NCBI GenBank assembly: GCA_027482195.1
Contig: JAIXWE010000053.1
Location: 3,308-67,307 of the forward strand
Direction of reading: 5' to 3'
Source: Alphaproteobacteria bacterium
GTDB taxonomy: Bacteria; Pseudomonadota; Alphaproteobacteria; Micavibrionales; Micavibrionaceae
Length of the DNA stretch: 64,000 bases
Shown here piece after piece: positions 30,302 through 45,522 of this stretch. The notes under the pieces were generated by a model. That model did no database searches. It saw only the letters and a list, made by a program, of their open reading frames with translations, and was not told the origin of the DNA. Each line of letters opens with the position of its first letter. Position 1 is the stretch's first letter. Made by a program: the position numbers and the translations under genes.

Positions 30302-30316
30302 TGAAACTGTGTTTCA
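30302..30316. promoter_or_regulatory. Perfect 15-bp palindrome TGAAAC-TGT-GTTTCA (candidate operator)
   Basis: Read directly. The bottom strand reads CGTGAAACACAGTTTCA, so this site belongs to the CGTGAAA(C/T) motif family. Confidence 0.55.
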
Positions 30317-30326
30317 CGGTAATAAT

Positions 30327-30342
30327 ATTTTACGTGAAATTT
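30327..30342 (+). repeat. Left copy of a 16-bp perfect inverted repeat ATTTTACGTGAAATTT
   Basis: It is identical to the reverse complement of 45359-45374. Confidence 0.9.
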
Positions 30343-30349
30343 TTAAAAG

Positions 30350-30357
30350 CGTGAAAC
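30350..30357 (+). promoter_or_regulatory. CGTGAAAC motif copy upstream of ORF 30534
   Basis: AAAAGCGTGAAACAC, read directly. Confidence 0.45.
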
Positions 30358-30533
30358 ACAAAAAACATCAAAAAAAATAAAGTTTTATAATGGTTTTTAT
30401 GAGCTGAATAAGCCCGAGAAAGCTTCATTTTTTTCTTGCTCAAAATTCTACATTCAGTGAAAGCTCATATATATGTTAGACGCAGTTCACACTCATCACC
30501 TAATTAGTCCATAGAATTTAAGAAGGATTTCGC

Positions 30534-31550
30534 ATGGGGTTGCCAACCGGAATTATAAAACAAGATTGGGTTCGGCATTCTGCTCCACAATCCGATAATG
30601 TTTCTCTCCCTCCTAAAAAAGATGGTCAATTTTATATTTCGTCGAATGGTTCGATTTTTCGTCACTATAAACATGAAGATGATCGTTTAATTCTTGCTCC
30701 CGCAAATGTGATTGTACATGAAAAAAATAAAAGCGCGAATGATCGCAATAAGCGCGAAATGTTAGAGCGACTTCGTTTGCTGATTGAGATGCGTGATTTG
30801 GTCATGAATATATTACATCTTCAAGAAAAAACACCTGACGATTCTGTTTTGTCTCCGTGGCAAGATTTACAAAAAACTTTGAAAAAAAAGTATGGTATTT
30901 TTTTAGAAACTTTCGGCCCAATTTATAAAACGGAAAGTGATCATTCTTATCCAAACTTAAGAAAATTTCGTAAAGATCCTGATGGGCACCGTGTTGCTTC
31001 CTTGATTGAAAGTTGCGATGACTTAAAAAATCATACTGGCGTTGGTGATATTTTTAACCCGCGCGTTCTCGCACATAACAGTGATGGTCTTGCGTTGACG
31101 AGTCATCATCAAAGCCTAATAGAGATTCCTCAATCGAGGAATTTCTTAAAACCATGTTTTGTGTTATCAGAAGAAAATTTTTTCCCCTTCATGCGTCAAT
31201 TTTTCAAGCTTCATCCTTTGGCAAATCTTTTCGTCATTGATCAAGATCAATGGATTGATGATGGCGCGAAATTGTCAGTTGATGAAAAAATGGAACGCTT
31301 TGTAAATAAGGTTAATAATAATTCATGGGATGGCATTTTAATCATGCCAGTTCATTTTAAAAAGTTGGTCAAGCACAAGTATTTTGATCTCATGAATGTG
31401 GATCATTATTTCATCGATGAATCTATTCAGTCACATACAATTGATGCGGCCGCCAAGATTGACGAGAGTCTTATATCTAAATTTACGGTGCCGGAGAGTA
31501 AGAAGCCCCCGCGCGCGGCATGTTATGATCCACCATCTCTCGCGGCGTAG
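30534..31550 (+). CDS. Hypothetical protein, possibly a collapsed remnant of a mobile-element methylase/SNF2-type helicase fusion gene
   Basis: 338-aa ORF with colinear short blocks (EMRDLVMNILHLQE, LKKKYGIF, FRKDPDGHRVASLIE, GDIFNPR, WDGILIMPVHF, VDHYFIDESIQ). These recall the linker and DExH-box region of those large proteins. No Walker A and no methylase motifs are present. The 3' end overlaps the convergent gene by 68 nt. Confidence 0.4.
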   Translation: MGLPTGIIKQDWVRHSAPQSDNVSLPPKKDGQFYISSNGSIFRHYKHEDDRLILAPANVIVHEKNKSANDRNKREMLERLRLLIEMRDLVMNILHLQEKTPDDSVLSPWQDLQKTLKKKYGIFLETFGPIYKTESDHSYPNLRKFRKDPDGHRVASLIESCDDLKNHTGVGDIFNPRVLAHNSDGLALTSHHQSLIEIPQSRNFLKPCFVLSEENFFPFMRQFFKLHPLANLFVIDQDQWIDDGAKLSVDEKMERFVNKVNNNSWDGILIMPVHFKKLVKHKYFDLMNVDHYFIDESIQSHTIDAAAKIDESLISKFTVPESKKPPRAACYDPPSLAA

Positions 31551-32655
31551 CAAAAAACGGGTTAGTATCCTGTGTAGTTAAAATCGATCGATCAAATTCA
31601 CATGCATGGCCTTGTTGATCCGCAATAAATTGTAAAAGCTGACGTCTAAAACGATAACTGGTTCCATAGGCGATTTTTTCACAAACCTCTTCACCTAAAA
31701 TCTCTCGTGCCGCATTATATAATAGCGCGGCATCAGCTTCGTTATCATTACCACCTGAGAATTTGGGAGCGCGCTGCGTGTTATTGGCCAGATTAAAATC
31801 GCGTATCGCAAACAACATTGGCAATGCACGTGGTAAAAATCCGGTGTCCTTGGGAACAAAGTCATGATAGGGCGGCTTTGCCGCCGCACCGGTGGATGTT
31901 TTTGGCATATCCGTTCCGCATTCCAAACTCATGATAGTTGAATCATAAACGCTTCGGAAATAATCTGCGCCGTAAACAACATTGCGACTTGCATAGGCGT
32001 GCACCGAAACTTTTTGAATAGATTTCCATGTAAACTTTGTTTGCAAACGTGCCTCTTGTTCCGCCATCAAAATGCGGCGTACTTTTTCATGATCGCCGTC
32101 CATCCATGCTTCATAATTTATAACAGAATCGAAATCGACAGGATTGGAGACATCTTTCAATTTTTCCCAAGCATGAGCAATTTGTCGTTTTGCATCATCT
32201 GGATTCAAAAACCCGTGCGGATAACCTAAAACAACAGCAATACCAACATTCGGATAATCTTTTAAAAATTCAATAAGGGGGGTGATTTTATCCGTGTAGC
32301 CATTATCACCAAAATCTCCCCACGTACAGACGGCGCGCATCGGGAAAGGATACGTGGCCTCTCGCGCCATGCGTGTCATCCATTCTTTTGGTTCGTTGCG
32401 CGTGTTGCGTAATGTTGTGTGGTCTGTGCGCGCCAAAACCCACTCCATTCTTTCTGCAGTAATTTCAGGGTGAGAAAAATATTGCGCGTAATGATCTGCA
32501 ATTTGGCAAGATCTAAAATAAATCTCCCGCGCATGCTCACGTTGTGATGATAGGGAATCTTTGATGGAAAGACTTGTAAATACAGGAGAGGGGGCAATGG
32601 GGGGAGTGCTAGGTACAGATGATTTGAGCAACATGACAATCCCCACAACAGTCAA
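31483..32655 (-). CDS. Deoxyribose-phosphate aldolase (DeoC/DERA) family protein, divergent, with an N-terminal extension
   Basis: It is colinear with E. coli-type DeoC: TDHTTL (MDLTTL), GIAVVLGYPHGFLNPDD (IATVTNFPHGNDD), VDFDSVINY (VDVVFPY), MPKTSTG (FIKTSTG, Schiff-base Lys at 31900-31902), APKFSGG (GFKPAGG) and YRF. The track start is TTG, and the first in-frame ATG is at 32634. Confidence 0.6.
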   Translation of the reverse strand: MTVVGIVMLLKSSVPSTPPIAPSPVFTSLSIKDSLSSQREHAREIYFRSCQIADHYAQYFSHPEITAERMEWVLARTDHTTLRNTRNEPKEWMTRMAREATYPFPMRAVCTWGDFGDNGYTDKITPLIEFLKDYPNVGIAVVLGYPHGFLNPDDAKRQIAHAWEKLKDVSNPVDFDSVINYEAWMDGDHEKVRRILMAEQEARLQTKFTWKSIQKVSVHAYASRNVVYGADYFRSVYDSTIMSLECGTDMPKTSTGAAAKPPYHDFVPKDTGFLPRALPMLFAIRDFNLANNTQRAPKFSGGNDNEADAALLYNAAREILGEEVCEKIAYGTSYRFRRQLLQFIADQQGHACEFDRSILTTQDTNPFFATPREMVDHNMPRAGASYSPAP

Positions 32656-32715
32656 AAATTTATCCTAGCTTTAGCTAACAAATTCGTGATGTCTTTACAA
32701 GAAAACATTGGTTAA

Positions 32716-32744
32716 CGTGAAACAGTTTAAAGCGTGAAACAGTT
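32716..32744 (+). promoter_or_regulatory. Two perfect copies of CGTGAAACAGTT spaced 17 bp start to start, in the divergent promoter region
   Basis: The copies at 32716-32727 and 32733-32744 are identical 12-mers. They lie between the DERA-like gene (minus strand) and the giant-protein operon (plus strand). Confidence 0.6.
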
Positions 32745-32876
32745 CGGCTTTTCTTGAGTTTATCGCATCTAAAAGTTCGAAAAAAATCATCCCAATTTAT
32801 TTTGTTAGGTGATGCTAATTTAAGTTGACGGCTAAAGTTTTTTTGATTTAAAGGAGGACTATCAGAATATTTTAAT

Positions 32877-35561
32877 GTGTCACGCATCACCAAGAAAGTT
32901 ATAGAGATGGAAACACCTCTTGTAACCACGGCAAGCAAGTGGATAACAACGCAACCGCGTTATCCGGGTGATTTATTCCACAATTTCGATTTATATTATC
33001 CCAAACCTGATTACACGGATGACTATTGGAAGGCGCAACATATTAATGCGGAAACCATGGCGTCTTTTGAATCGCGCTCAAAATGGGCCTATATCAACCA
33101 AGCCATGTTTTATGCTTCTGCTTCAAGTGGGCGTGCGGCCTATGATATGGCACGGCGCTATCCTGAAAAAATATTGATCGGAAGTCGCAAATTTACAACA
33201 CCAGATGACGAACAATTTATGACGATTCAGTGTTTGAAATCAGCCCTTGATTCAAACGCACTGATGGGTCCTTTTGTATTAGCCCAAAATTACCGTGATA
33301 ATATGATTGCAGCAGGAATTGCTGCGCAAAATCTCACTGATCCACGCACGGGGGAGCGCAATGTTTATATTGTTGGGCCGCCGCATCGTGAAGCTTTTAT
33401 TCGCAGTTTGAAGCAATACCCGACATTATTGCGGGGTGCTGGTTACGAAGATGCAACATTCGAAATTCACTTCTGGGGGCCTTTTTGCACATTTGATGTG
33501 ACGCACGGCATTTATTCGGGGGATCATGCATGGTCGCGTAATGCTGCGATGGAAAAAGCTTCTGCGCTCGCTACTCAATATGGTGTTCCATTAATTTCAA
33601 TGTATCGCAGTGGTCGCGGATGTGCCGTTGTCGATATTTACAATCAATCTATCTCTCCGCTTGATCAAGCATGGGAAGATGCACGCCACATTGTTGATGT
33701 GGTTGGCCAGACTGTCCGGTTTAATGGCTCCGATTATTTCTTCCGTACTGAAGCAGCCGTCATGTTGTTGCTCACGCGCTTTTTATACGATGATTATGTG
33801 CGTAACGGAACGGGGGATCTTGTTCCAAGCTTAATGGATCCGGCGGTAAAGGCACATTATGCTTCGCCGGGTGAAATTGAAAAAATGGATATTTTGAAAC
33901 GCCATATGCTTCCCTATATGGCGAATTTTTGTAATTGGCCGACATTGCATCGCGCATTAAATAATGATCCTGCGTTAAAAGCTTACTGGGAAGAGAATGT
34001 TATTCCTCATTACGGGCAGATGGATAACAAAGCGGAAACGGAAGCAAAGATTCTAAGCTATCTTCCGCGCGGCGGTTGTGCTGATCAAGATTTGATGAAA
34101 AAAGTTTCTGAGTTGCGCGATCCGCGTAGCAAAAGTGTGTTTATGTCTTCATCAAATGAGAACGCACAATTTGCAAAACCGCCCATGTCACAAGGATTGC
34201 ATGAAGAAGCGTTTTCATCTGAATACGATCCGCTTATTTTTAATGACCGCAACTTTGCACGATTAAATGCAACATCAAATCCTAACCAAGATCCATCACC
34301 AACACATTACAGTTTTGAACAATCGGCAGCCATTATGGTTTTGGCGGGCTTTCGTAATAAAGGTTTGGTGCCTTTTGACGCGCCGCGGACATTATTATTT
34401 CTCGATGGTGCAAGCCAAGGTGAAATGCCTAAAAAATTCCGTGAAGATAAAGGCGTGTCTCATCCATCAGAAATGGGTGCAATATTTGATGTTTTATCAC
34501 GCGGTGGTGAAAACTTTGCCGAAAGTGTAGGTGAAGAAAATGCAGCAAATTTAAAAGATTTAACCCGGCGGATGATGTTTCATCCTTCTTTTGAGTTATG
34601 GCGCAAAAAACATGGTGTGGGTAATATTATTCCTGTATCTGATTTTTCGGCTGCTTTTGCCCAATTTGAAGGGCGGCGCGAAGCAACGAATACGGAAGTG
34701 CACGAAGCCATTGATGCGCGCGGGTCGATGAAAATAACTTCGGCCACGAGTGAGGCGACAGTGCGCCGTTATATTGCCGTCGAAGCACAGGGAATAGTTA
34801 TTCCGAGTGGCGATATTGATGAACGCAGCTATCGTTACATCACAGATGGTGTCTTGGCAACGATCGGTAAAACACCGCGCCCAAATTCTGGTGGTAAATA
34901 TCAATTCGAGTTTTTCTTGAAATCATCCGGTGATGATCAGATTAAAAAACTTGATTTGGCTGATTTGATTATCCTTGTTGGGCTTCAAGTTAAGTCTGAT
35001 TTAGAAAAAAAGACGCCGGCAAAACTAAAAGATCGTTATGTATCAATGGCGCGGCTACTCAATATCTATGAATATCTTATTGATCCTGCGCAACGGAATC
35101 AGGTTTACAAACGTGACTCATTATCTGGTGCAGATTCTCAGAAAAGCATAATTGATTGGAAGCAAGTTGATCCTGATTTTAGTGAATTTATAACCTATAC
35201 CCCCACTTTTGATATTTCTATTTTTGATAAAGATGAAGAATATCAAAAATTTTCAAATAATACATTGGACTTGCAAACATATTTATTTGATCCCGTGCAA
35301 AAATCAAAACTGGTTCAAATGATATGGGCATGGATGGTGGCTGCACCCATTAAGGTGCGAGAAATTGGTAAGGATATGCCAACACGTGGAAATTTATTAG
35401 CGCGGGCGATTAAGGATTTTGACGATCGTGATTTGATTGATCTGCCTAGTGAGTACCGCGACGCCAAGAAATGGTGGGAAGGCATGAACGCGCGGCAGCG
35501 TAAAGAGTTTTTTGAGCAAGGAACTATTCATTTACAAGGGCCCGCAGTTGATGTGCGTTAA
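32877..35561 (+). CDS. Hypothetical large protein (894 aa), first gene of the giant-protein operon
   Basis: Long uninterrupted ORF in which I recognise no catalytic or nucleotide-binding motif. The start is ambiguous: GTG at 32877, or ATG at 32907 preceded by a 9-codon mini-ORF. Confidence 0.6.
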   Translation: MSRITKKVIEMETPLVTTASKWITTQPRYPGDLFHNFDLYYPKPDYTDDYWKAQHINAETMASFESRSKWAYINQAMFYASASSGRAAYDMARRYPEKILIGSRKFTTPDDEQFMTIQCLKSALDSNALMGPFVLAQNYRDNMIAAGIAAQNLTDPRTGERNVYIVGPPHREAFIRSLKQYPTLLRGAGYEDATFEIHFWGPFCTFDVTHGIYSGDHAWSRNAAMEKASALATQYGVPLISMYRSGRGCAVVDIYNQSISPLDQAWEDARHIVDVVGQTVRFNGSDYFFRTEAAVMLLLTRFLYDDYVRNGTGDLVPSLMDPAVKAHYASPGEIEKMDILKRHMLPYMANFCNWPTLHRALNNDPALKAYWEENVIPHYGQMDNKAETEAKILSYLPRGGCADQDLMKKVSELRDPRSKSVFMSSSNENAQFAKPPMSQGLHEEAFSSEYDPLIFNDRNFARLNATSNPNQDPSPTHYSFEQSAAIMVLAGFRNKGLVPFDAPRTLLFLDGASQGEMPKKFREDKGVSHPSEMGAIFDVLSRGGENFAESVGEENAANLKDLTRRMMFHPSFELWRKKHGVGNIIPVSDFSAAFAQFEGRREATNTEVHEAIDARGSMKITSATSEATVRRYIAVEAQGIVIPSGDIDERSYRYITDGVLATIGKTPRPNSGGKYQFEFFLKSSGDDQIKKLDLADLIILVGLQVKSDLEKKTPAKLKDRYVSMARLLNIYEYLIDPAQRNQVYKRDSLSGADSQKSIIDWKQVDPDFSEFITYTPTFDISIFDKDEEYQKFSNNTLDLQTYLFDPVQKSKLVQMIWAWMVAAPIKVREIGKDMPTRGNLLARAIKDFDDRDLIDLPSEYRDAKKWWEGMNARQRKEFFEQGTIHLQGPAVDVR

Positions 35562-35585
35562 TGATGATGATAAGTACGGAGTTAC

Positions 35586-38500
35586 GTGATGGTTAAGTTT
35601 TCTGATGCACTGACAGAAAACTACTCACTTGATATGTGGTTGCGGCGTTTGGGGCTTTGGCGTCATAAGCCAATTGGTTTAATGACGATTGATGAACGAA
35701 AAGCATATCTTCATTCAAATGCCTTCTCAAAACCTCTTGTTTTAACGGGATCCTCTTACGACCCTGAAGGCTATCAGCTCATCAGCATGATGTCGCTTAC
35801 GCACTATGATCATGTAAGTGGTATTCTTGATGATAAAATTATTTATTGGCGACACACATTGGATGATGATGTTGATGAAGCAGGTAAAATTCCATTTCAG
35901 GATTATTTTGTTTTAGGGATACGCGGTGTCCGTGATGATCACCTAACGGGTGAGGGTGTTCCGGTTATTGTGCCGGATCAAATCTGGTGGAACGGGAATT
36001 TGGTCTTTAATGGTCCAGCAAATGGGGGGCGTCATGATCCGGAGCGCCCTGAACAACAACGTCAAATTAATCGCTATCTTGAGATGAGTCAGCAAGTTAA
36101 AGAGCATTTAAATAGAGGTTTGCCGCTTGAAAAAATTGGCCATGTGTTCTCACAAGATGTGTTGAGTGATCATTTCTCTGCGCGCGCTCTTGGGGGCGCG
36201 CCTTTCTTGCGTGGTTTAAGCTCATCAGGATGGGATAACGTGGAGCGGCTTCTTGGGGCAAATTTTGTTGACTTGTTTCAAAAAGAAGATCAGAGAATTT
36301 CATTTCGTCTTCCATCCTTACCTGAAATCTCTTCACTTGATCGCTTAAAAGCTCTTCATGGTTTTTATATCAACAGTGTGGAGCCAATACGCTGTTTAAG
36401 TGAGCAATGGGATAAATATGCCTCTGATATGCGCACGGGAATGGGTTATGTCACAGAAACGAATTACTTTTTTGATGAACAAAAGCAACGTCATATTTTT
36501 TCAGTGCGTATTGCCTCAGAAAATCCACCTAAGGATATGCCAAAATTTGAGCCATATGAATTAATACGCCTTGAATATACTCAGGGTGAGGATGTTTTTA
36601 CGCTGGAAGATTCATTCTTTATGGGTGTCAAAGATAAGAAATATCAAAAAAATAGTGATTTTTTAAGTCTTATTGGGGCTTTGCAAGATACAAATCAAGC
36701 CCTATCTGAGCGCATTTTTCCTGATTATCAATCTATTTTAATGCGCAATAAACTTCATAATCGTATTAGTGAATTTCGCATGCCGCCAAAATTATCAGAC
36801 GGGGGCGAGGCGTTGTGGATTCCATTATGGGGAACCAATATGCGCAAAACGATTGAAGAGTTTGGGGATGGTATTGGTGGTGGAAATTTATTTATGCATC
36901 GTGGGCGTGATGATGATAACCACCTTGATGAAATTGCCGTGCTACATGGCTTGCCGTATCAGCCGGGAAGCCCAGACTCGAATTATAAAGGTGCACAGCC
37001 GAGTTTAGTGCCTTATCTTGATGCCTTGCGCCGTGGTGCGATCATCATTGATCACATTCACTTTGATCACTCAACAATTGAGTTTTATGCGACACAAAAG
37101 GATCAAAGTGGTAACGGTTGGTTCAAAGGGCAAAAAATTATTTGTAAAGGTATAGATGCCTATATCATGAAAAATCGTCTTTTGCGCCTGGGTGTTAAGC
37201 AAGATCAGTGGCCAGAATTTATTGAATTTGATCGTGATGATGCGTTTGCGCGTTACCCCAATCTCTTTAAAGATAGAAACGGAAATTTTGCTTATCGCAT
37301 TCAAGATGAAAAAGGCAACACGCGCGGATGGAATCAGATTTGTAAAGATGGAACAAGCCATTCAGCGTTGACGGACTCTTACCTTATTACAATGTGTTAT
37401 AATAATAATTTACTTGATACCTATTATATCGATAGTGATGCGAACGGGCTTAACGACAACGGATGGAAATTTGCAGAAGACGGCCAATTTGCGCTTGAAG
37501 GCATTGATGGAATTACACGCGAAGATTTATTGAAAGCTGTTAAGTCAGAAGATAAATTATATATCTCACTAGAAGAGCCGACAGGAATTACGCGTACTGG
37601 GCGTTGTTCTACACCTGAGCAATTCAAAGATACATTCCGTGCATTAGAAAAAGCATTACCCGAAGGCTTTGCGCATGGCGTCATTCCTTTTTCAACCAAT
37701 CATTTGGAATATCAAGCTATTCGTGAAGTATGGGCCGAAAAAGATACGTTGCGGCATACGACAGCGGTTGGCGCCAACGCCCAATTGCGGGATACGGCAT
37801 TAAATATATATGGGGTCAATCCTAAACTTGATTTGCGCACAGTGACTATTGCGCATGATCATATTCCGCAATTAGTTTATGAGCTTTTATATGATGGCAT
37901 GATTGATTTCATGATAAAGGCTGAGAAAAAAGCGTTACGACAGTCAAAAAGAGAATACGAAAGCAGAACATTAGATGAGATTTTAAATGATGATGTGGTG
38001 TATCAAAAAGTAAAAGCAATTTTTGATACTCATAAAGATAATTTTGATCATGGCGTATCGCAACCGATTGAGTTTTATAATGGATTTTTGAATAACCAAG
38101 ACGGTGATTTAACAAAATTGATGCAATCATGGTTGCGCAAATATACCAAAGTATTTTGGGAAGGTGCAGATAAATTATCAACCGCATATAATGGAAATAC
38201 GTGCAATTTTATGCTGTCTAAACTAATAAGCAAAGGGATGGTCACATTTGACTCCCGTTGCGGTCACAATGATTACAATATGTATCAAGCCATTATGGTG
38301 AAGCAAGACCACGCTTCTGTTCACGGTGTGCGTACCGCAAAACGCACCAAAAGATTTAGAAATGACTATGGACAGCTTGGCTTTATTTCAACTGACCCAT
38401 TGGGGACTTCGGACAGTCGCTTCGGGTCAATGTCGCGTTTTGCAAATGGTGACTCACTCTTTGACTATGATGAATTTGTGCGTAACACAGGTTACAAGAT

Positions 38501-39335
38501 TGATCCTGAGAAACTTATTCTCACAGTGACACAAACCGCGAGCATGGGATCTGATGCATGGAAATCTCAAGATCAGCTTATGCAGAAAATTTCACATGAC
38601 CGTGGTGTGACAGTTTTTTGTGCGATTGATGACGGCTTTAAAATCTATAATCCGCGTGAGCATCGCGCGCGCTATGAAGCGATGTGTCGTGAAGAAGGAT
38701 GGAGCTTCACGGGCGACGGTCGCATGATGTATATTCATGCTGCGCATTCGCACATTCAAGGTCACAGGCGTGAGCAAGATATGCGGGATAAAATGACTGA
38801 CCCCCGCTATAAACCAAAATTGGTGGAAGTCATTCATTGCCCAAGTGTTGAGAGTTTGAATATTCTTAAAAATGTCGTGCGTGATGCGGGTCATCGCATG
38901 ACGATCAAAGAGCCGGAAAATAATATCGCGCGCGCATGCGAGTGGGATGAGAAAACACAATCTTATAACATGATTGATAAAGACTATTTAAGTGAACGGA
39001 TGATGTTAATCAATTGGGCCGCAAAATATGGTCAGATGTATAATTGGGTTGTAACAATGACCGAGGCAATTGTGATGCCAAAACGTGGTGGTGCACGGGC
39101 TGATCCACTTACAATGCGGTCACATTTATGTAGCGAGTTCCAGCAACAAACCGCATTGCGAAACACAGCAAGCTGGATAAGACCAAAATTTGGTAACAGT
39201 AGCCGTGGGCGAGCTTTAGGGCCTGCGCCCGCCGATATTCGTGAGGAGGGTGGAGCTCCGCCTGCTCCTATGATGACCGATATGTTACGCCGCGCCTTAA
39301 TATCAAGCTCCGCACGGAGATTGCAGAATGTTTGA
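35586..39335 (+). CDS. Giant protein (1249 aa) with an RNase J-like metallo-beta-lactamase/beta-CASP core
   Basis: GGAG lies 8 nt before the ATG at 35589 (GTG at 35586). The HxHxDH motif IIIDHIHFDHS is at 37053-37070. RNase J-like blocks occur in order: WIPLWGTN..IGGGNLF, SLVPYLDAL, GTSHSALTDSYLI, YYIDSDANG, HIQGHRREQDM. About 400 N-terminal residues have no motif I recognise. Confidence 0.6.
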   Translation: MMVKFSDALTENYSLDMWLRRLGLWRHKPIGLMTIDERKAYLHSNAFSKPLVLTGSSYDPEGYQLISMMSLTHYDHVSGILDDKIIYWRHTLDDDVDEAGKIPFQDYFVLGIRGVRDDHLTGEGVPVIVPDQIWWNGNLVFNGPANGGRHDPERPEQQRQINRYLEMSQQVKEHLNRGLPLEKIGHVFSQDVLSDHFSARALGGAPFLRGLSSSGWDNVERLLGANFVDLFQKEDQRISFRLPSLPEISSLDRLKALHGFYINSVEPIRCLSEQWDKYASDMRTGMGYVTETNYFFDEQKQRHIFSVRIASENPPKDMPKFEPYELIRLEYTQGEDVFTLEDSFFMGVKDKKYQKNSDFLSLIGALQDTNQALSERIFPDYQSILMRNKLHNRISEFRMPPKLSDGGEALWIPLWGTNMRKTIEEFGDGIGGGNLFMHRGRDDDNHLDEIAVLHGLPYQPGSPDSNYKGAQPSLVPYLDALRRGAIIIDHIHFDHSTIEFYATQKDQSGNGWFKGQKIICKGIDAYIMKNRLLRLGVKQDQWPEFIEFDRDDAFARYPNLFKDRNGNFAYRIQDEKGNTRGWNQICKDGTSHSALTDSYLITMCYNNNLLDTYYIDSDANGLNDNGWKFAEDGQFALEGIDGITREDLLKAVKSEDKLYISLEEPTGITRTGRCSTPEQFKDTFRALEKALPEGFAHGVIPFSTNHLEYQAIREVWAEKDTLRHTTAVGANAQLRDTALNIYGVNPKLDLRTVTIAHDHIPQLVYELLYDGMIDFMIKAEKKALRQSKREYESRTLDEILNDDVVYQKVKAIFDTHKDNFDHGVSQPIEFYNGFLNNQDGDLTKLMQSWLRKYTKVFWEGADKLSTAYNGNTCNFMLSKLISKGMVTFDSRCGHNDYNMYQAIMVKQDHASVHGVRTAKRTKRFRNDYGQLGFISTDPLGTSDSRFGSMSRFANGDSLFDYDEFVRNTGYKIDPEKLILTVTQTASMGSDAWKSQDQLMQKISHDRGVTVFCAIDDGFKIYNPREHRARYEAMCREEGWSFTGDGRMMYIHAAHSHIQGHRREQDMRDKMTDPRYKPKLVEVIHCPSVESLNILKNVVRDAGHRMTIKEPENNIARACEWDEKTQSYNMIDKDYLSERMMLINWAAKYGQMYNWVVTMTEAIVMPKRGGARADPLTMRSHLCSEFQQQTALRNTASWIRPKFGNSSRGRALGPAPADIREEGGAPPAPMMTDMLRRALISSSARRLQNV

Positions 39336-42300
39336 CAAGAACAATCAACGCATCGCACGTAAACGATTTTTATGGCCACAAGTCACGCGCGGTGAGTTAA
39401 TGAACTTGACGATTGATTTTGAAACAAGCGGTTTGGATCGCCAAAATGTCCCTTATGCAACAAAATCATACTCTTTTACTACAGAATATGGGGATGCTCT
39501 GACTGATTTTGCGGGAAACTATTTAAACTCGGCTCAAATTTTTCCGCGTCGTCCTGATTGGTTGGTTGCACAAACACCGGCATTGATCTTACAGCGTACA
39601 CCAACGGGGCCTGCGGATTTAGATGACGAATCTCGGATTCCTTATTCTCAAGCGTGGGCGGCAATTTCATGGCGTATTGAACAAGCTATGTTCGCCTATG
39701 ACCAATTTGGCCATCCGACGAACATTATTTCAATCGCTGACTATGATAAAAGTTTTAAGCACGGCCAAAAAGATGCTATTGAGACTGTCATTGATATTCC
39801 TCTTTTGGATGATAACGGGGAAATCGTTTATGACTTAAGATACCATCCTGAACGCCGCAAAATTTCATATCGAATTGATAGAGATCCGCAAAGCCCTTAT
39901 TACCGTGTCCCGCATAATATTTATTACAAAGACAAAGATGATAAATCGTTATGGAAATGGGTTGATCCAAGCTTATACGTTGATTTTTATAATGCTCGTT
40001 TTGATTTGCCGCATTTGCGGATGCAACTCTATCGCACCGGATCGGATCCCCAGGATACAACATTTTTATATGCACGCGGTACACCAAGCAACAAACAACG
40101 CAAGCGCGGCCATATTGTTGATGTCCGCCACGTGGCTTACGCTACGGCTCTTTACGGACCGCAAGGTGAGCAAGGCTTAAATCTTGGTCGCATTATTGAT
40201 GAACGTGGCCGTATAAGAAATTCCGAGGCCTTATCAGCCTATCTATCCTCGAATTCCAATTTTGAGAATCCAATGCGTTTGATAAAGCAAGGTATCTTTA
40301 TGCCAGATGGGTCTTTGCATGATCCTAATATGGATCATGGCGCAGCCTACGATGCCCTTGGTACGGTTGCATTACGTAACCATTGTTGGGATATTGCGCC
40401 GTGGGTGTGCGCCGAAGTGGTGCGTCAATCCGATGATAATGACCGCCGTCATTTTTTAATGCGCCAAGATCCGGTCCGTACGATCTTTCCGCTTTATACA
40501 TTGCCGCGCCGTCAAGAAGGCTTAAGTCACAGCGATCAACTTTATTGGTATTTGGGCAATGATAATGCGCTTGGAGATTTCAAGGATGACATTTTTCTGC
40601 GCGTGGACGGCAAATTAAGGCACGAGACATACAAAGAAAAATTATTGAAGGATTTATCTGTTGAAGAGTGGGTCGAATATCTTTCCTTAAAGGTCACGTC
40701 ATCAGATCCTGATCGCGCCGTAAGAATGGAATCGCATCGTTTGGCACCACCTGCTTTTGCTTTTGATGATGTTGTCAACTACACATCCCAGGGCGGTAAA
40801 TATAAATCGCGCTTTAAAGATTTATCGCAAGACATCAAATATATCACTGAGAACGAACAAATGCGGGAACGTATTTTCTCAGCTATCGCATTAAAAAATG
40901 AAGTGCGTCGCAAAAATGCACATGTGCCTCATGTCAAACTTTTAGAGGATGAATTGCCATCCCAATACTCTATCGAAGTAAGTTTTCAAGACGATGCACG
41001 ACGTGAGGAGCAGCGGCAGCAGTTTATAAAGTCGGGTTATAAAGGGCCAGAAATTCAGCCAGGCATTTTAGATACAATCAAAAATGCCATGGATAATGTC
41101 TATAAATTTCAACGTCAAATTGACTCGGCGTCTAGACGTTTATGCTTGAAGGCTCATCCAATTGACTTTTTTAAAGATTATGAACTCGATGATTTTGCTC
41201 ACATGCAGGATCCAGATATTGCCGCTGTTCTTCAAAATTATACTGATTTATGCGAACGTGTTTATAGCATTTATAAAAAGAAGGAGTCTTCTTATAAAGA
41301 CTTTCTTGATGAGATTGTAAATCCTGTGACTGGTGGATCTTTCTTTAAAAAGGGACGATTTAAAGCACAAACGGTTGGACAAGCATTTTATTTTCGCAAA
41401 GAGTTGATGCGCCGTGCCCTTAATGATTATGATATCTTACTATCCTATAAAGGTTCGGACACGCATAAAAAATCATATATTGAAGGAGTGGTTGATAAAA
41501 AAGTTTATTCCTTATCGCATCGCGGTAAGCAACTTTTTCTCTTTGCCGACCCAGATAATGGTGTTCAGGGATCACAGCCATTTTTAGTCGATGAATATGG
41601 CCGGAGATTGGAACTATCCTACATTAAGTCTATTTCTCCGCGTGATGCGATTAATCTGCTTGTAAATGAAAATAAATGGGAAATCCGTTTTTATCGTCTA
41701 AGATCAGATCCAACAATTTTAAGGCTGGCTCAGCGGGCGCTTGATCTAGACATGGGTAATATTATCCCGCCCGCTATTTTGCACATGTATCAGGCAGATA
41801 AAAGAAACCGCCATCTGATCCTTCCGAACGAGACACCAACAACGTCACGTATTCCGACATTACTCACAGACGAAATTGACATTACGCGGCTTGAAATTGC
41901 TGCATCCAGTCAATCGCCTTTGATTTTGGAGCGCGCAGAAGATTCTGCATTATCGGTTGCCGCGCGCCTGATCAAGCAAGATGAGTCATGGCGTATTTTA
42001 TCAAACTCACGTGCTTATAATACAGAAATGACATCTTCTGCCTTGAGTTGGCAGCCATGTTTATCTGCTGCTATGTTTGACCCTGTAAGTAATTTGCCTT
42101 ACGAGTTTATCGAGCATCTTATTCCGCGTGATAGCTCAAAAGATTTTGAGGATGATCCTAATATTATCATCATTGATGTTCCGGTATGGCATGCGCATTA
42201 CCCTATCGAGCAATATGACCCGCGTCTTCCTTTTCGCGGCCTGGTTATAGATGATATTCCAAAATATCAACGCGAACTTATCCGCGAGAATCGCCGCCAT

Positions 42301-43107
42301 GTTGTTATTCGTGTCAAAGAAACGGGGCAAATGTTTGCATGTGGGCGAACATCGCTTCATACCGTTCAATCAAATGATAAATCATTTTCAAGTATTCTTG
42401 AGAAGGCCAGTAATGATTACCTGCAATCCGGCCACAAACTTTCGGATAAAAAAAATCTTTTGTTTTTGGGAATTGAAAAACTATACCCGATAGCAAATAC
42501 CCGCCCGATTGATCAATCTTACCAGTCCTTATCACTTGCCAGCCCTCAATTTTATGGCCTTGTATCGCCGTGTTTTGCAAATTTACGGGACACATTTTTA
42601 ACAGCAGCTATTGTCCCATATGATTACGCATCACAACGTTTTATGAAGGGGGATCCTATCCACTTGCATGAAATGGAAGGACAAATTTTTGCGTCATCTA
42701 ATGGGCAGCGTAATCCCAACACAGGGCATATGTATGAATCTATCCTCGATGATATCAAGGGGGTTGACGAGAATGGTAATAAGCAAGGCATTACAATCGA
42801 GCAAATAATGCGCGACATTCGAAGTGGTGACTTGTCATCGGAATTTGTGAGAGCGGCCGGATTTTTAGGCCCTGATCATTTGGAGCAACATCTGCACGAT
42901 TGGACGGCGGCGCGTTTTAAATCAAATCCAGATCAGGAAAAATTTTTATTATGTTCCTTTGCACCGGTGAATGAGGTTTACCGTGAAACAGGAAGGGAGA
43001 AAGATAATAAATGGGTTTATTTTGATGGTCTTTCTGTACCAAGGGCGGCCATTTCGTGGGATGGGCAAATGCCACCACCTCAAAGTTATCGGCGGGTTTT
43101 TGTATAA
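39328..43107 (+). CDS. Giant protein (1259 aa) with an N-terminal exonuclease I (SbcB)-like DEDDh 3'-5' exonuclease domain
   Basis: Exo I motif IDFETSGLD (39412-39438), Exo II FYNARFDLPHL (39985-40017) and Exo III HGAAYDALGTVAL (40336-40374). The start overlaps the upstream stop by 8 nt (ATGTTTGA). About 900 C-terminal residues have no motif I recognise. Confidence 0.6.
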   Translation: MFDKNNQRIARKRFLWPQVTRGELMNLTIDFETSGLDRQNVPYATKSYSFTTEYGDALTDFAGNYLNSAQIFPRRPDWLVAQTPALILQRTPTGPADLDDESRIPYSQAWAAISWRIEQAMFAYDQFGHPTNIISIADYDKSFKHGQKDAIETVIDIPLLDDNGEIVYDLRYHPERRKISYRIDRDPQSPYYRVPHNIYYKDKDDKSLWKWVDPSLYVDFYNARFDLPHLRMQLYRTGSDPQDTTFLYARGTPSNKQRKRGHIVDVRHVAYATALYGPQGEQGLNLGRIIDERGRIRNSEALSAYLSSNSNFENPMRLIKQGIFMPDGSLHDPNMDHGAAYDALGTVALRNHCWDIAPWVCAEVVRQSDDNDRRHFLMRQDPVRTIFPLYTLPRRQEGLSHSDQLYWYLGNDNALGDFKDDIFLRVDGKLRHETYKEKLLKDLSVEEWVEYLSLKVTSSDPDRAVRMESHRLAPPAFAFDDVVNYTSQGGKYKSRFKDLSQDIKYITENEQMRERIFSAIALKNEVRRKNAHVPHVKLLEDELPSQYSIEVSFQDDARREEQRQQFIKSGYKGPEIQPGILDTIKNAMDNVYKFQRQIDSASRRLCLKAHPIDFFKDYELDDFAHMQDPDIAAVLQNYTDLCERVYSIYKKKESSYKDFLDEIVNPVTGGSFFKKGRFKAQTVGQAFYFRKELMRRALNDYDILLSYKGSDTHKKSYIEGVVDKKVYSLSHRGKQLFLFADPDNGVQGSQPFLVDEYGRRLELSYIKSISPRDAINLLVNENKWEIRFYRLRSDPTILRLAQRALDLDMGNIIPPAILHMYQADKRNRHLILPNETPTTSRIPTLLTDEIDITRLEIAASSQSPLILERAEDSALSVAARLIKQDESWRILSNSRAYNTEMTSSALSWQPCLSAAMFDPVSNLPYEFIEHLIPRDSSKDFEDDPNIIIIDVPVWHAHYPIEQYDPRLPFRGLVIDDIPKYQRELIRENRRHVVIRVKETGQMFACGRTSLHTVQSNDKSFSSILEKASNDYLQSGHKLSDKKNLLFLGIEKLYPIANTRPIDQSYQSLSLASPQFYGLVSPCFANLRDTFLTAAIVPYDYASQRFMKGDPIHLHEMEGQIFASSNGQRNPNTGHMYESILDDIKGVDENGNKQGITIEQIMRDIRSGDLSSEFVRAAGFLGPDHLEQHLHDWTAARFKSNPDQEKFLLCSFAPVNEVYRETGREKDNKWVYFDGLSVPRAAISWDGQMPPPQSYRRVFV

Positions 43108-43402
43108 TCTATTTCCGTTTTACTTTTTCAGTTTGTAATTTACCTGCATCATAATTGGGGTAGCGTAAATTTTTTTTCAGCCAATAATTAAAAAGTGTAA
43201 ACGCGTTTTTAGAGCGTTTTTAATTTTTGGAAATGAAAATCACGGATTTTCGCCAAAAAGCAAGTCCCCCTGATTAAGGTCTTGGTTAAGGCGTTGTAAA
43301 TATTGATTATAATTTATCTCAAATTCAAAATAGTTTCCATAATGTTTACGTTGATTTAACCTCCAGTGACTATCCTTAGAATCGTTCTGGGGAGAATAGA
43401 CA

Positions 43403-44455
43403 ATGGCCTTGTATCGGCAAGAAACAGGAAAATTCAAAATTGACGAGCGCGAGATCGATGCGACGTTACGTGGTGACGTTTTGCCATTACACACCGCGCC
43501 ATCATTGTCTCAAGATGAAGACGAAGCAATAGAAAATGAGGCAGGTTTTGGTGAGGGTCATACCCGTACGCGTGCCGCGTTATCAGAGTTTACAAATGCT
43601 GATCCGTTAAATGCCGCCGGTGCAGCGGAGAAATTGCGCCGCGATATTAACAGCCCACTTAACATCGGTGGTGGTGGCGGTGCGCTTTACACCGAAGATA
43701 AAAATCCATGGGGTCAAAACAAAGACGAGAAAAAAGACGACGTTGCCCAAAACGCCATGGGGGATATGGTTGAGCAAGCGCAAGAAAGTTTAAAGCGCGA
43801 TCGTGAGGTCATGCAACGCCAACGTGAAGAGCAATGGGCGAACATGATGAACGATGAATACGGCATCAACCTGACACCGGGGCAGTGGAAGCGCGTTGAA
43901 GATATCATGTCGGACGATTCCAAGCGCAAAAAACACTTTGATGATTTGCAAAAGAAAAATGGGTGGACAGACAAACAACGCGACGAAGCCGAAAAGGCAG
44001 CGATGGAGATTATTCGCCTCAAACAACTTTATGCCCAAGGGAAGATTTCCGAAGATGAACTTAAAAAACGCATGGGCGATCTCAAAGCCGAAAACCCAAC
44101 AGCTTTTAAAGATGCAGGAAAATCTGTTGAAGCAATCAGCGAATTTGATAGTAAGGATGCCAGTACAAAAATTACTGATGCAAGCGCACAATCGCGCGTG
44201 AAACAAACCGATGATGTTCAGGTTGCACGTGTTGAACAGAAAGCAGAGGTGAAAGCGTTACCATCCGGAACCCCGCAGTCCCAAAGTGATGTATCATTTG
44301 GGCGGGCACAATTTCCAACCGCTCCAAACGCGACGAATGATTTTAGCGCGGTGAATAATCCACAACCTGCAAAAGTTGAGACAGCACCAGCGGCACAACC
44401 AAACCCGGTACAGATAGCGAGCATTGAGCGCAAATTTGACGCCGTCGCGTTGTAA
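43403..44455 (+). CDS. Hypothetical highly charged protein (350 aa)
   Basis: GGGGAG lies 8 nt upstream of the ATG. The centre is rich in Lys/Glu/Asp/Gln helical sequence and the tail is Pro/Ala/Gln-rich. I recognise no motif. Confidence 0.5.
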   Translation: MALYRQETGKFKIDEREIDATLRGDVLPLHTAPSLSQDEDEAIENEAGFGEGHTRTRAALSEFTNADPLNAAGAAEKLRRDINSPLNIGGGGGALYTEDKNPWGQNKDEKKDDVAQNAMGDMVEQAQESLKRDREVMQRQREEQWANMMNDEYGINLTPGQWKRVEDIMSDDSKRKKHFDDLQKKNGWTDKQRDEAEKAAMEIIRLKQLYAQGKISEDELKKRMGDLKAENPTAFKDAGKSVEAISEFDSKDASTKITDASAQSRVKQTDDVQVARVEQKAEVKALPSGTPQSQSDVSFGRAQFPTAPNATNDFSAVNNPQPAKVETAPAAQPNPVQIASIERKFDAVAL

Positions 44456-44472
44456 AATCAAAGATTATAAAA

Positions 44473-45291
44473 TCAGGGATTAAGAGCCGCCAAGGTGGTG
44501 GGGGCTGATGATGTGCTCGCCGCCGCAACTTGTGGTCCTTTATAAAAAACGCTTGCAAGTTCAGTCGGGCGCGTTGCGGATGTTGTCGCCATAGTGCGCG
44601 TTACACCATCGCCATCAACAAAATGAATCCCCCCCTGACGGGTTGGCAAAGCATTCGGGCTATAACCAAAAATAAGGCGTGGGCCATAACGCTCACCGCC
44701 CTTTTCGGGGACTAATGTATCAGCCACAATCGCAACGCGATACCCGGCGGCATAACGTTTGGGAAGGCTTTCATCATTAACAGCCGCGCTTCCGAACGTA
44801 TCACGTGCCAATGCCGCGCGTGAAACGGCCGGGTCAATGCCGGTTAAGGCGGCTTGAGGAATGCGGTCAGATCCAGGGCCCGAAGTTGGGAAAACTTTGA
44901 TATTCGCCATAGTGATACCAACACAGGCCTTTGTCGGGGCGGATATAAAATCATACCCCACACCATTTTTTATGCCGCGTGACGCGGGCAATGTGCCATC
45001 GGCGTTGGGTTGAATTTTAAGGGGTGAATTAAAAGCAACGACATAGCCGCGTGAGCCGTTTGCGTTTGAATAAAAAATTTGACCGTCTTCGCCAATATTT
45101 TGTTGGTTGCCCATATAAATAGGAGCCATTTTTTCAGCACCTAGCTCGGTGCGCAATTGCGCGATTTCCGCATCACCATTGTAGCATTTTTCTTCCACTG
45201 CCGCATTTACCGCGGTTGCACCTGCGCAGATGGCAAACGCGAAGGCGGCTGCTGTTTTTGCGGTTTTCAAAGCTAAAGATGTGCGTGTCAT
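44473..45291 (-). CDS. Hypothetical secreted protein
   Basis: From the internal Met there is a clear signal peptide (MTRTSLALKTAKTAAAFAFAICAGATAVNA). I recognise no motif. The ORF extends to 45360. Confidence 0.5.
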   Translation of the reverse strand: MTRTSLALKTAKTAAAFAFAICAGATAVNAAVEEKCYNGDAEIAQLRTELGAEKMAPIYMGNQQNIGEDGQIFYSNANGSRGYVVAFNSPLKIQPNADGTLPASRGIKNGVGYDFISAPTKACVGITMANIKVFPTSGPGSDRIPQAALTGIDPAVSRAALARDTFGSAAVNDESLPKRYAAGYRVAIVADTLVPEKGGERYGPRLIFGYSPNALPTRQGGIHFVDGDGVTRTMATTSATRPTELASVFYKGPQVAAASTSSAPTTLAALNP

Positions 45292-45358
45292 GGCAATCAC
45301 CAATTTGTTTTTGTTTCTTGAATGCTTAAGACTATATATCAAAACACCCCGTCTTGGC

Positions 45359-45374
45359 AAATTTCACGTAAAAT
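45359..45374 (-). repeat. Right copy of the 16-bp perfect inverted repeat (AAATTTCACGTAAAAT on the plus strand)
   Basis: It is the reverse complement of 30327-30342. It lies 68-83 nt upstream of the ATG at 45291 and 59 nt from the tRNA-Ser 3' end. Confidence 0.9.

Positions 45375-45432: not shown

Positions 45433-45522
<90 letters not shown>

Follow-up and report, generated by a model that had tools for sequence, protein, structure and literature searches.

What kind of protein is encoded by gene B, a plus-strand open reading frame (ORF) of 1249 amino acids (aa) in a 64,000-nucleotide (nt) stretch of DNA from an Alphaproteobacteria bacterium (assembly GCA_027482195.1, contig JAIXWE010000053.1, positions 3,308 to 67,307; hereafter the window), and what does it do between the two large ORFs, genes A and C, that flank it? 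An earlier note, made from the letters of the DNA, had proposed a stretched RNase J-like core of metallo-beta-lactamase (MBL) and beta-CASP domains behind an N-terminal region of about 400 residues. Beta-CASP enzymes of the RNase J type have central functions in the decay of RNA and the processing of its 3' ends, and a CRISPR effector was recently found among them. Gene B represents a new family of the beta-CASP clan that carries no annotation and has RNase J as its closest neighbour; its chemistry and core fold are already known. It is homologous to RNase J, shares its fold and has kept its metal ligands intact, and it is linked to genes A and C both by operon structure and by gene fusion. 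We consider with good confidence that its product is an active two-metal beta-CASP nuclease, a remote homologue of RNase J, serving as the middle subunit of an A-B-C module.

The ORF list of the window bore out a single plus-strand ORF of 1249 aa at 35586..39335, counted from GTG 35586. This codon is directly followed by ATG 35589, from which gene B has 1248 aa, matching the NCBI product (P0001); the ATG is the likely true start. A GGAG sequence is located 4-7 nt 5' of the start of gene B.

The active site of gene B

We aligned 52 sequences of the gene B family, among which the lowest identity to the gene B protein was 16%. Exactly ten columns of the alignment were invariant (P379, H490, H492, D494, H495, H592, D618, G1059, H1060 and H1084), and nine of the ten sit in catalytic motifs, the exception being P379. 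As references we used the verified sequence of B. subtilis RNase J1 and the S. epidermidis J1 and J2 sequences, taken from the PDB. Compared with RNase J1/J2 by hhalign, the 52-sequence profile gave a probability of 99.0% (E 2.5e-18); the 405 aligned columns, in which identity was 16%, correspond to residues 32-443 of RNase J.

In this alignment the motifs of gene B, all encoded on the plus strand, were matched with those of B. subtilis RNase J1. Motif II (HxHxDH) is encoded at 37053..37070, exactly where the earlier note had read HIHFDH, and its H490, H492, D494 and H495 correspond to H74, H76, D78 and H79 of RNase J1. The motif III His, H592 (in GTSHSA; 37359..37361), corresponds to H142, and the motif IV Asp, D618 (in IDSDA; 37437..37439), to D164, the bridging metal ligand. 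In the motif A region, E664-P-T666 (37575..37583) was aligned with D195-S-T197, T666 being at least 90% conserved in the family. Motif B, G1059-H1060 (in HIQGH; 38760..38765), was aligned with G367-H368, and the motif C His, H1084 (in VEVIHCP; 38835..38837), with H390, the last metal ligand. A loss of zinc ligands beyond HxHxDH, which had been named beforehand as a sign of an inactive scaffold, was not seen: all seven metal-ligand positions aligned one-to-one to RNase J and, together with motif B, were invariant in the 52 sequences.

As defined for MBL and beta-CASP proteins, motif A is an acidic residue or Thr, motif B a His and motif C a His or a Val (PMC4770246). A His in motif C marks RNA nucleases and a Val marks DNA nucleases (PMC4770246); judged from the alignment, the invariant motif C His of gene B is the signature of the RNA-cleaving branch. 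Further pairs in the hhalign alignment were PFSTN with FASN and STDPLGTSDS with CTGSQGEP, and the consensus of the family showed TGxQGxxxE against TGSQGEP of RNase J, and QxxIPG against SPIPGN.

The blocks on which the earlier note had based its RNase J order (WIPLWGTN...IGGGNLF, SLVPYLDAL, GTSHSALTDSYLI, YYIDSDANG, SLEEPTGITRTGRCSTPEQF, HIQGHRREQDM and VEVIHCPS) are all present in the translation of gene B, and nearly all of the block pairs were reproduced by hhalign. The first pair, GDGIGGGN with GGLGEIGKN, falls outside the aligned region and is plausible only, being unconfirmed by the alignment. The pattern of motifs is not due to chance, because full-length homologues exist and the motif residues, with P379, are the sole invariant columns among the 52 members.

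Fold and domain architecture

An AlphaFold2 model of residues 395-1249, built on an alignment of 8 sequences, showed a mean predicted local distance difference test score (pLDDT) of 74 and a predicted template modelling score (pTM) of 0.73. When the model was searched against the PDB with Foldseek, ranks 1-35 were all RNase J chains (E 3e-11 to 8e-7; template modelling (TM) score per target 0.54-0.70). A second tier consisted of archaeal CPSF/FttA (E 5e-6 to 1e-3) and CPSF73 (E 2e-3), followed by RNase Z (E ~1e-2). All 42 matches with E <= 0.001 were beta-CASP proteins, and the aligned relatives showed 8-10% identity to gene B. The predicted fold of the core matches MBL nucleases, and structure prediction, one of the checks suggested beforehand, placed RNase J chains first. 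The RNase J-like MBL/beta-CASP core is supported by this ranking, by the hhalign probability of 99.0% and by sub-threshold Pfam matches in relatives.

Based on the model, Foldseek and hhalign, the first segment of the MBL domain (aa ~405-650; 36798..37535, plus strand) carries motifs II-IV. The beta-CASP domain (aa ~655-1050; 37548..38735, plus strand) is inserted into the MBL fold: by Foldseek and hhalign, these residues align to the beta-CASP domain of RNase J and lie between MBL motifs IV and C, and Pfam RNase_J_b_CASP is matched below threshold in relatives. The core comprises residues ~405-1145, about 740 aa compared to about 445 aa in RNase J; the spread of about 600 residues estimated in the earlier note was too small. 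Its expectation of a large insertion held, the largest one being ~165 aa at residues ~762-925.

RNase J (J1/J2; 3zq4, 3bk1/3bk2, 4xww and 8yyk) has the same MBL domain interrupted by beta-CASP and the same motifs II, III, IV, A, B and C in the same order, and the TGxQGE and IPG signatures are common to both proteins. By the top 35 Foldseek ranks and by hhalign, it is the nearest beta-CASP relative of gene B. Unlike RNase J, which has about 555 aa, the 1249-aa gene B protein possesses an extra N-terminal domain of 400 aa and a helical insertion of ~165 aa in beta-CASP, and its gene has obligatory genomic partners, A and C; HMMER does not retrieve the two proteins reciprocally. RNase J has a C-terminal (dimerisation) domain, whereas gene B instead ends in a conserved tail modelled with low confidence. 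The second-tier matches aCPSF1/FttA and CPSF73 (2ycb, 3af5, 9bct and 2i7t) are also beta-CASP RNases with a motif C His. They match less well than RNase J and are found in a different genomic setting. Archaeal aCPSF1/FttA also carries N-terminal accessory domains (KH), but the N-terminus of gene B is not KH-like and has no fold match.

The N-terminal region (aa 1-~400; 35586..36785, plus strand) was modelled separately with AlphaFold2 and appeared as two beta-sheet-plus-long-helix modules (pLDDT 70.6, pTM 0.73). It is present in nearly all members of the family. No credible fold match was found for it in the PDB (best match E 0.048, probability 0.04) or BFVD (TM <= 0.16). No internal duplication was detectable by hhalign, and no domain was found in common with the product of gene A or gene C.

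The helical insertion (aa ~762-925; 37869..38360, plus strand) is placed within the beta-CASP domain, just ahead of the TGxQG strand, and was recognised as helices in the model (pLDDT mostly 75-90) and as an unaligned block in hhalign. It has no counterpart in RNase J, and its length varies among family members. The C-terminal tail (aa ~1148-1249; 39027..39332, plus strand), Arg/Gly/Pro-rich and ~100 residues long, takes the place of the RNase J C-terminal domain, which gene B lacks according to both the model (pLDDT < 50 in the tail) and hhalign, where the alignment stops at RNase J residue 443. Because a few positions (R1207, P1213 and P1225) stay conserved family-wide despite the low model confidence, the tail positions suggest a short linear interaction or targeting motif. 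Across the whole family the consensus of the tail reads SARQRxxGPSxADIQxxGGxPxGP, with these three residues kept.

The gene B family and the A-B-C operon

Gene B matched no Pfam family at E <= 1 and showed no significant match in PHROGs, PADLOC or NCBIfam. A Pfam profile search was among the checks proposed in the earlier note, and the absence of a significant MBL/beta-CASP match, which it had named as speaking against its claim, is formally what we found for gene B. Searches of all PDB sequences by phmmer with the single sequence and by hmmsearch with the 8-sequence profile returned noise and no RNase J. In relatives, Pfam Lactamase_B_2 (cut-off 27 bits) was matched below threshold in 4 of 8 close members (best E 0.002); in distant members the matches reached E 4e-5 for Lactamase_B_2 and, in P0057, E 8.5e-5 for RNase_J_b_CASP, all under the curated cut-offs.

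A word-indexed search of 5.8 billion proteins returned 8 proteins, namely gene B and 7 full-length relatives with 31-46% identity, all unannotated. When 1.84 billion cluster representatives were searched with a hidden Markov model (HMM) of residues 395-1249, no word index being used, we retrieved 82 proteins at E <= 1e-3, and canonical RNase J was not among them. Full-length members are mostly 1000-1300 aa long, and the HMM-matched region begins at residue ~330-420. The named sources are all 'hypothetical protein [Alphaproteobacteria bacterium]', from metagenome-assembled genomes (MAGs). A pattern scan of one genome per species (185,579 species), whose reach is limited to the near subfamily of gene B, found a single locus, in an Alphaproteobacteria MAG. 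The gene B family is rare. Megablast of gene B against plasmid and phage collections gave no match, so nothing indicates that it came from a plasmid or a phage. The family is absent from the papers we found on beta-CASP in anti-phage systems, on RNase J with DERA, helicase or island, on DUF8437 and on alphaproteobacterial RNase J operons.

In the window, genes A, B and C are three large co-directional ORFs in a run. Gene A (32907..35561, plus strand) encodes 884 aa (894 aa if read from GTG 32877), gene C (39328..43107, plus strand) lies directly 3' of B and encodes 1259 aa, the gap between A and B is 24 nt, and B and C overlap by 8 nt shared by the stop of B and the start of C (ATGTTTGA). A-B-C are translationally coupled in the window. 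Gene B stood between an A-type protein of ~800-900 aa and a C-type protein of ~1100-1300 aa in the loci that we recovered, including those of members with 16-20% identity. A-B-C synteny was found in L001-L004. In L007 and L008, the upstream 761-aa gene is a homologue of A (hhalign 98.3%, E 2e-14), B and C are fused, and a 150-aa ORF lies between the A homologue and the fusion. The fusion protein P0057 (L007:5942-13453, L008:3507-11018) is one polypeptide of 2503 aa, in which C was recognised by hhalign (99.6%, E 8e-25). In L009 and L010, the downstream gene is a C homologue by BLASTP and the upstream ORF is A-sized and without a Pfam family. In GCA_041443045 (745-kb contig), A-B-C were assigned by gene order and size only. 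These loci show that gene B is genetically locked to A and C. The surroundings of A-B-C differ from locus to locus and mostly consist of core genes (glmS/glmU, grpE, hrcA/rph, valS and mipZ/sua5); no integrases or recognised defence genes were found around A-B-C in the recovered loci.

Neither gene A nor gene C matched anything in Pfam, PHROGs, PADLOC or NCBIfam, nor did their profiles match anything in the PDB at E <= 10. Gene A, with no homology detectable in these databases, has 22 homologues, all unannotated. DEDDh (DnaQ-like) exonucleases carry the motifs DxE (ExoI), NxxxD (ExoII) and HxxxxD (ExoIII) in an RNase H-like fold. The N-terminus of gene C begins with LTIDFETSGLD, and D30, E32, N222, D226, H337 and D342 are invariant in 18 homologues. 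The pairs D30/E32, N222/D226 and H337/D342 possibly represent ExoI, ExoII and ExoIII separated by long inserts, a resemblance in sequence that our comparisons have not confirmed: hhalign of gene C with DnaQ and the PolC exonuclease domain gave a probability of 0.7% and aligned only ExoI, and Pfam RNase_T matched one distant member among the gene C homologues at E 0.26. Beyond the DEDDh-like part, about 900 further residues of gene C have no recognised family.

Two further genes accompany A-B-C in the subclade that contains the window; distant lineages have neither. One, divergent from A-B-C (31483..32655, minus strand), encodes a 390-aa DERA/DeoC-like class I aldolase homologue (DERA, deoxyribose-5-phosphate aldolase) and is kept in L001, L002 and L004. 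Its profile matched DERA chains in the PDB (E 4.7e-10), with K252-T-S-T-G aligned to IKTSTG, which holds the Schiff-base Lys. Against NCBIfam deoC it scored E 3e-4 and 20 bits, compared to an equivalog cut-off of 117 bits, and we therefore regard it as a homologue, not an orthologue, of DERA. DERA is typically 220-260 aa long. Because the encoded protein is far longer and scores well under the cut-off, it may have a substrate different from that of DERA.

The other is an SNF2/ResIII-type helicase, intact (1425-1561 aa) in L002 and L004, where it lies upstream of the operon, and in L001, where it lies downstream of C. It matched Pfam WH_1, DUF8437 and Helicase_dom; its likeness to DrmD and BrxH is weak and consists of generic similarity in the superfamily 2 (SF2) C-terminal domain, and it had no match in the PDB. 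In the window, a remnant of 338 aa (30534..31550, plus strand) is left, whose matches to the L002 helicase are limited to residues 39-208 and 516-599. The helicase has been reduced by deletion and has thus decayed in the genome of the window, which has kept A, B and C intact.

The window looks like an alphaproteobacterial chromosome, with pepN, obg, genes for a PAS histidine kinase, a YkuD protein and a CcrM-type methylase with a RAMA domain, and mutY, smc, ntrY, mltB and rlpA. A-B-C and its accessory genes belong to an unannotatable block (30534-45360) with a guanine-plus-cytosine content of 0.41-0.43, compared to 0.44-0.50 in the flanks. At its right edge lies a tRNA-Ser gene (anticodon tga; 45433-45522, minus strand), the 3' end of which faces the block. 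We found no att-like direct repeat of the tRNA-Ser 3' end and no integrase in the window. Two ORFs in the block, of 350 aa (43403-44455, plus strand) and 295 aa (44473-45360, minus strand), are without family matches and had no homologues in the other operon-bearing loci. As the tRNA repeat is lacking and the two ORFs are not conserved, mobility of the block is not established.

A short motif, ACGTGAAA / GCGTGAAACA, occurs in 2-3 copies per intergenic region at 30312-30358, upstream of the helicase remnant, and at 32715-32741, in the region that separates gene A from the DERA-like gene. A further copy is found at 45362-45369, upstream of the 295-aa ORF beside tRNA-Ser. The motif may be a shared operator, but in the window as a whole it is no more frequent than chance would give, and the other loci have not conserved it. 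The repeated motif CGTGAAAC was rejected as a candidate: the corresponding intergenic regions of the other loci lack it, and its count in the window is not above chance.

Activity, substrate and role

That the gene B product is catalytically active, with which polarity and on which substrate, and that it forms a complex, are inferred, as is the biological role of the gene and the module. The MBL domain would supply motifs II-IV, the inserted beta-CASP domain motifs A and B, and the return to the MBL fold motif C. By analogy with RNase J, the zinc-type binuclear metal site would cleave single-stranded nucleic acid hydrolytically, and the protein would act as a 5'-to-3' exonuclease and/or endonuclease. 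It would be the middle subunit of A-B-C and act with its partners rather than alone, the N-terminal domain, the 165-aa insertion and the conserved tail mediating binding to partners or substrate.

Several observations weigh against such an enzyme. pLDDT falls below 50 precisely at residues 493-496, in the HxHxDH loop, in a model whose alignment is shallow. At the motif I position, the family consensus has Asp (VxVxxDxP) and gene B has His455 (in LHGLP); this Asp belongs to the second shell, where it orients a motif II His, and is not a metal ligand (PMC4770246). The Ser in the HxSGH phosphate pocket of RNase J is Gln in gene B (HIQGH); the family consensus of this segment is HxxGHG, in which G and the second H are invariant and Ser is not conserved. 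Gene B has no significant sequence match in Pfam, NCBIfam or the PDB, even with the 8-sequence profile. The linked DERA-like enzyme and SNF2-like helicase point to DNA over RNA.

The low confidence around HxHxDH, the substituted motif I Asp and a sequence that has diverged extremely from those of active relatives (8-10% identity when aligned by Foldseek) would suit a dead scaffold, an MBL/beta-CASP pseudoenzyme used for binding only, like CPSF100 or some RNase J2. However, pseudoenzymes of this clan typically lose ligands (the motif of S. epidermidis RNase J2 reads HGHEHA), whereas in the gene B family the seven ligand positions and motif B remained invariant in 52 sequences while nearly all else varied; we consider a dead scaffold extremely unlikely. 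Only slightly better placed, and still very unlikely, is the proposal that gene B is the housekeeping RNase J orthologue of its host with extra domains added. RNase J is indeed the top structural and profile match, but the RNase J C-terminal domain is absent, the Pfam RNase J models stay under threshold, and RNase J is much more common than the family; to our knowledge, no obligatory partners like A and C are known for RNase J. Because the C-terminal domain is lacking and the family HMM, which retrieved 82 proteins out of 1.84 billion representatives, retrieved no canonical RNase J, we call gene B RNase J-like and not an orthologue. The slimmest chance of all is left to an MBL hydrolase acting on a substrate other than nucleic acid (a lactamase, glyoxalase II, sulfatase or small-molecule phosphodiesterase). 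HxHxDH is common to the whole MBL superfamily and the sole Pfam hints in close relatives are to the generic Lactamase_B_2, but among MBL proteins a beta-CASP domain bearing motifs A, B and C is found specifically in those that process nucleic acids (PMC4770246), and all significant structural matches were beta-CASP nucleases.

The nuclease may act on DNA, with A-B-C, the helicase and the DERA-like enzyme forming an anti-phage or anti-plasmid defence system or a system for DNA scavenging or processing; gene B would then not encode an enzyme of RNA turnover. In one subclade the operon travels with an SF2/SNF2-type helicase of 1425-1561 aa, the domain of which is weakly similar to the DrmD and BrxH helicases, and with a divergently linked homologue of DERA, a family that acts on deoxyribose 5-phosphate; gene C shows DEDDh-like motifs. 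The family is also thinly and unevenly spread (82 clusters out of 1.84 billion; for the near subfamily, one locus in 185,579 species genomes), and in the window the block adjoins tRNA-Ser, has a slightly lower GC content and contains a decayed helicase. On the other hand, the His of motif C never varies and is the signature of RNA nucleases; none of A, B, C and the DERA-like gene matched PADLOC; neither an integrase nor a known defence gene nor a repeat boundary was detected; and in distant lineages the trio sits among core housekeeping genes without helicase or DERA. We therefore regard action on DNA in such a system as possible but rather doubtful. Beta-CASP RNases are also able to degrade single-stranded DNA (PMC4770246). 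Since these enzymes cut such DNA and DNA is also hinted at by the partners of gene B, the helicase and the DERA-like enzyme, we leave its substrate between RNA and DNA.

Cas14, of type VII CRISPR-Cas, is a beta-CASP nuclease that serves as the effector of a multi-protein system and thus sets a precedent for a role in defence, but the only likeness to gene B that we noted is membership of the clan, and gene B has no CRISPR or Cas context. SNM1, Artemis and PSO2, of the same clan, with a 5' exonuclease/endonuclease mechanism, would be functional analogues if gene B acted on DNA; their motif C is Val (PMC4770246) in contrast to the invariant His of gene B, and they were not among the significant fold matches.

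Returning to gene B as an active RNase J-like nuclease within A-B-C, a more far-reaching proposal, which we put forward tentatively and as speculative, is that A-B-C forms an undescribed alphaproteobacterial multi-subunit machine for nucleic acid degradation. Its parts would be a 5'-3' nuclease of the RNase J type, a large subunit of unknown fold and possibly a 3'-5' exonuclease of the DEDDh type; in one subclade the SNF2-like helicase and the DERA-like enzyme would be added. The N-terminal domain and the tail of B would serve as assembly or targeting modules. If so, its possible roles would include a new defence or genome-surveillance system, or a dedicated degradosome.

What is new here is, most of all, that A, B and C form a conserved module to which a helicase and a DERA-like enzyme are accessory; the insertion and the N-terminal fold of gene B are new as well. 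An RNase J core can stretch to more than twice the size of RNase J, gain an N-terminal fold and join a fixed three-protein module recognised by no database. The gene B family lies beyond routine annotation, each named copy being a 'hypothetical protein', and the operon has so far been seen only in Alphaproteobacteria. With the catalytic residues pinned down, mutational and biochemical tests are direct. If A-B-C is a defence system or a degradosome-like machine, it would represent a new architecture made from familiar nuclease chemistry and two large proteins of unknown fold, A and most of C.

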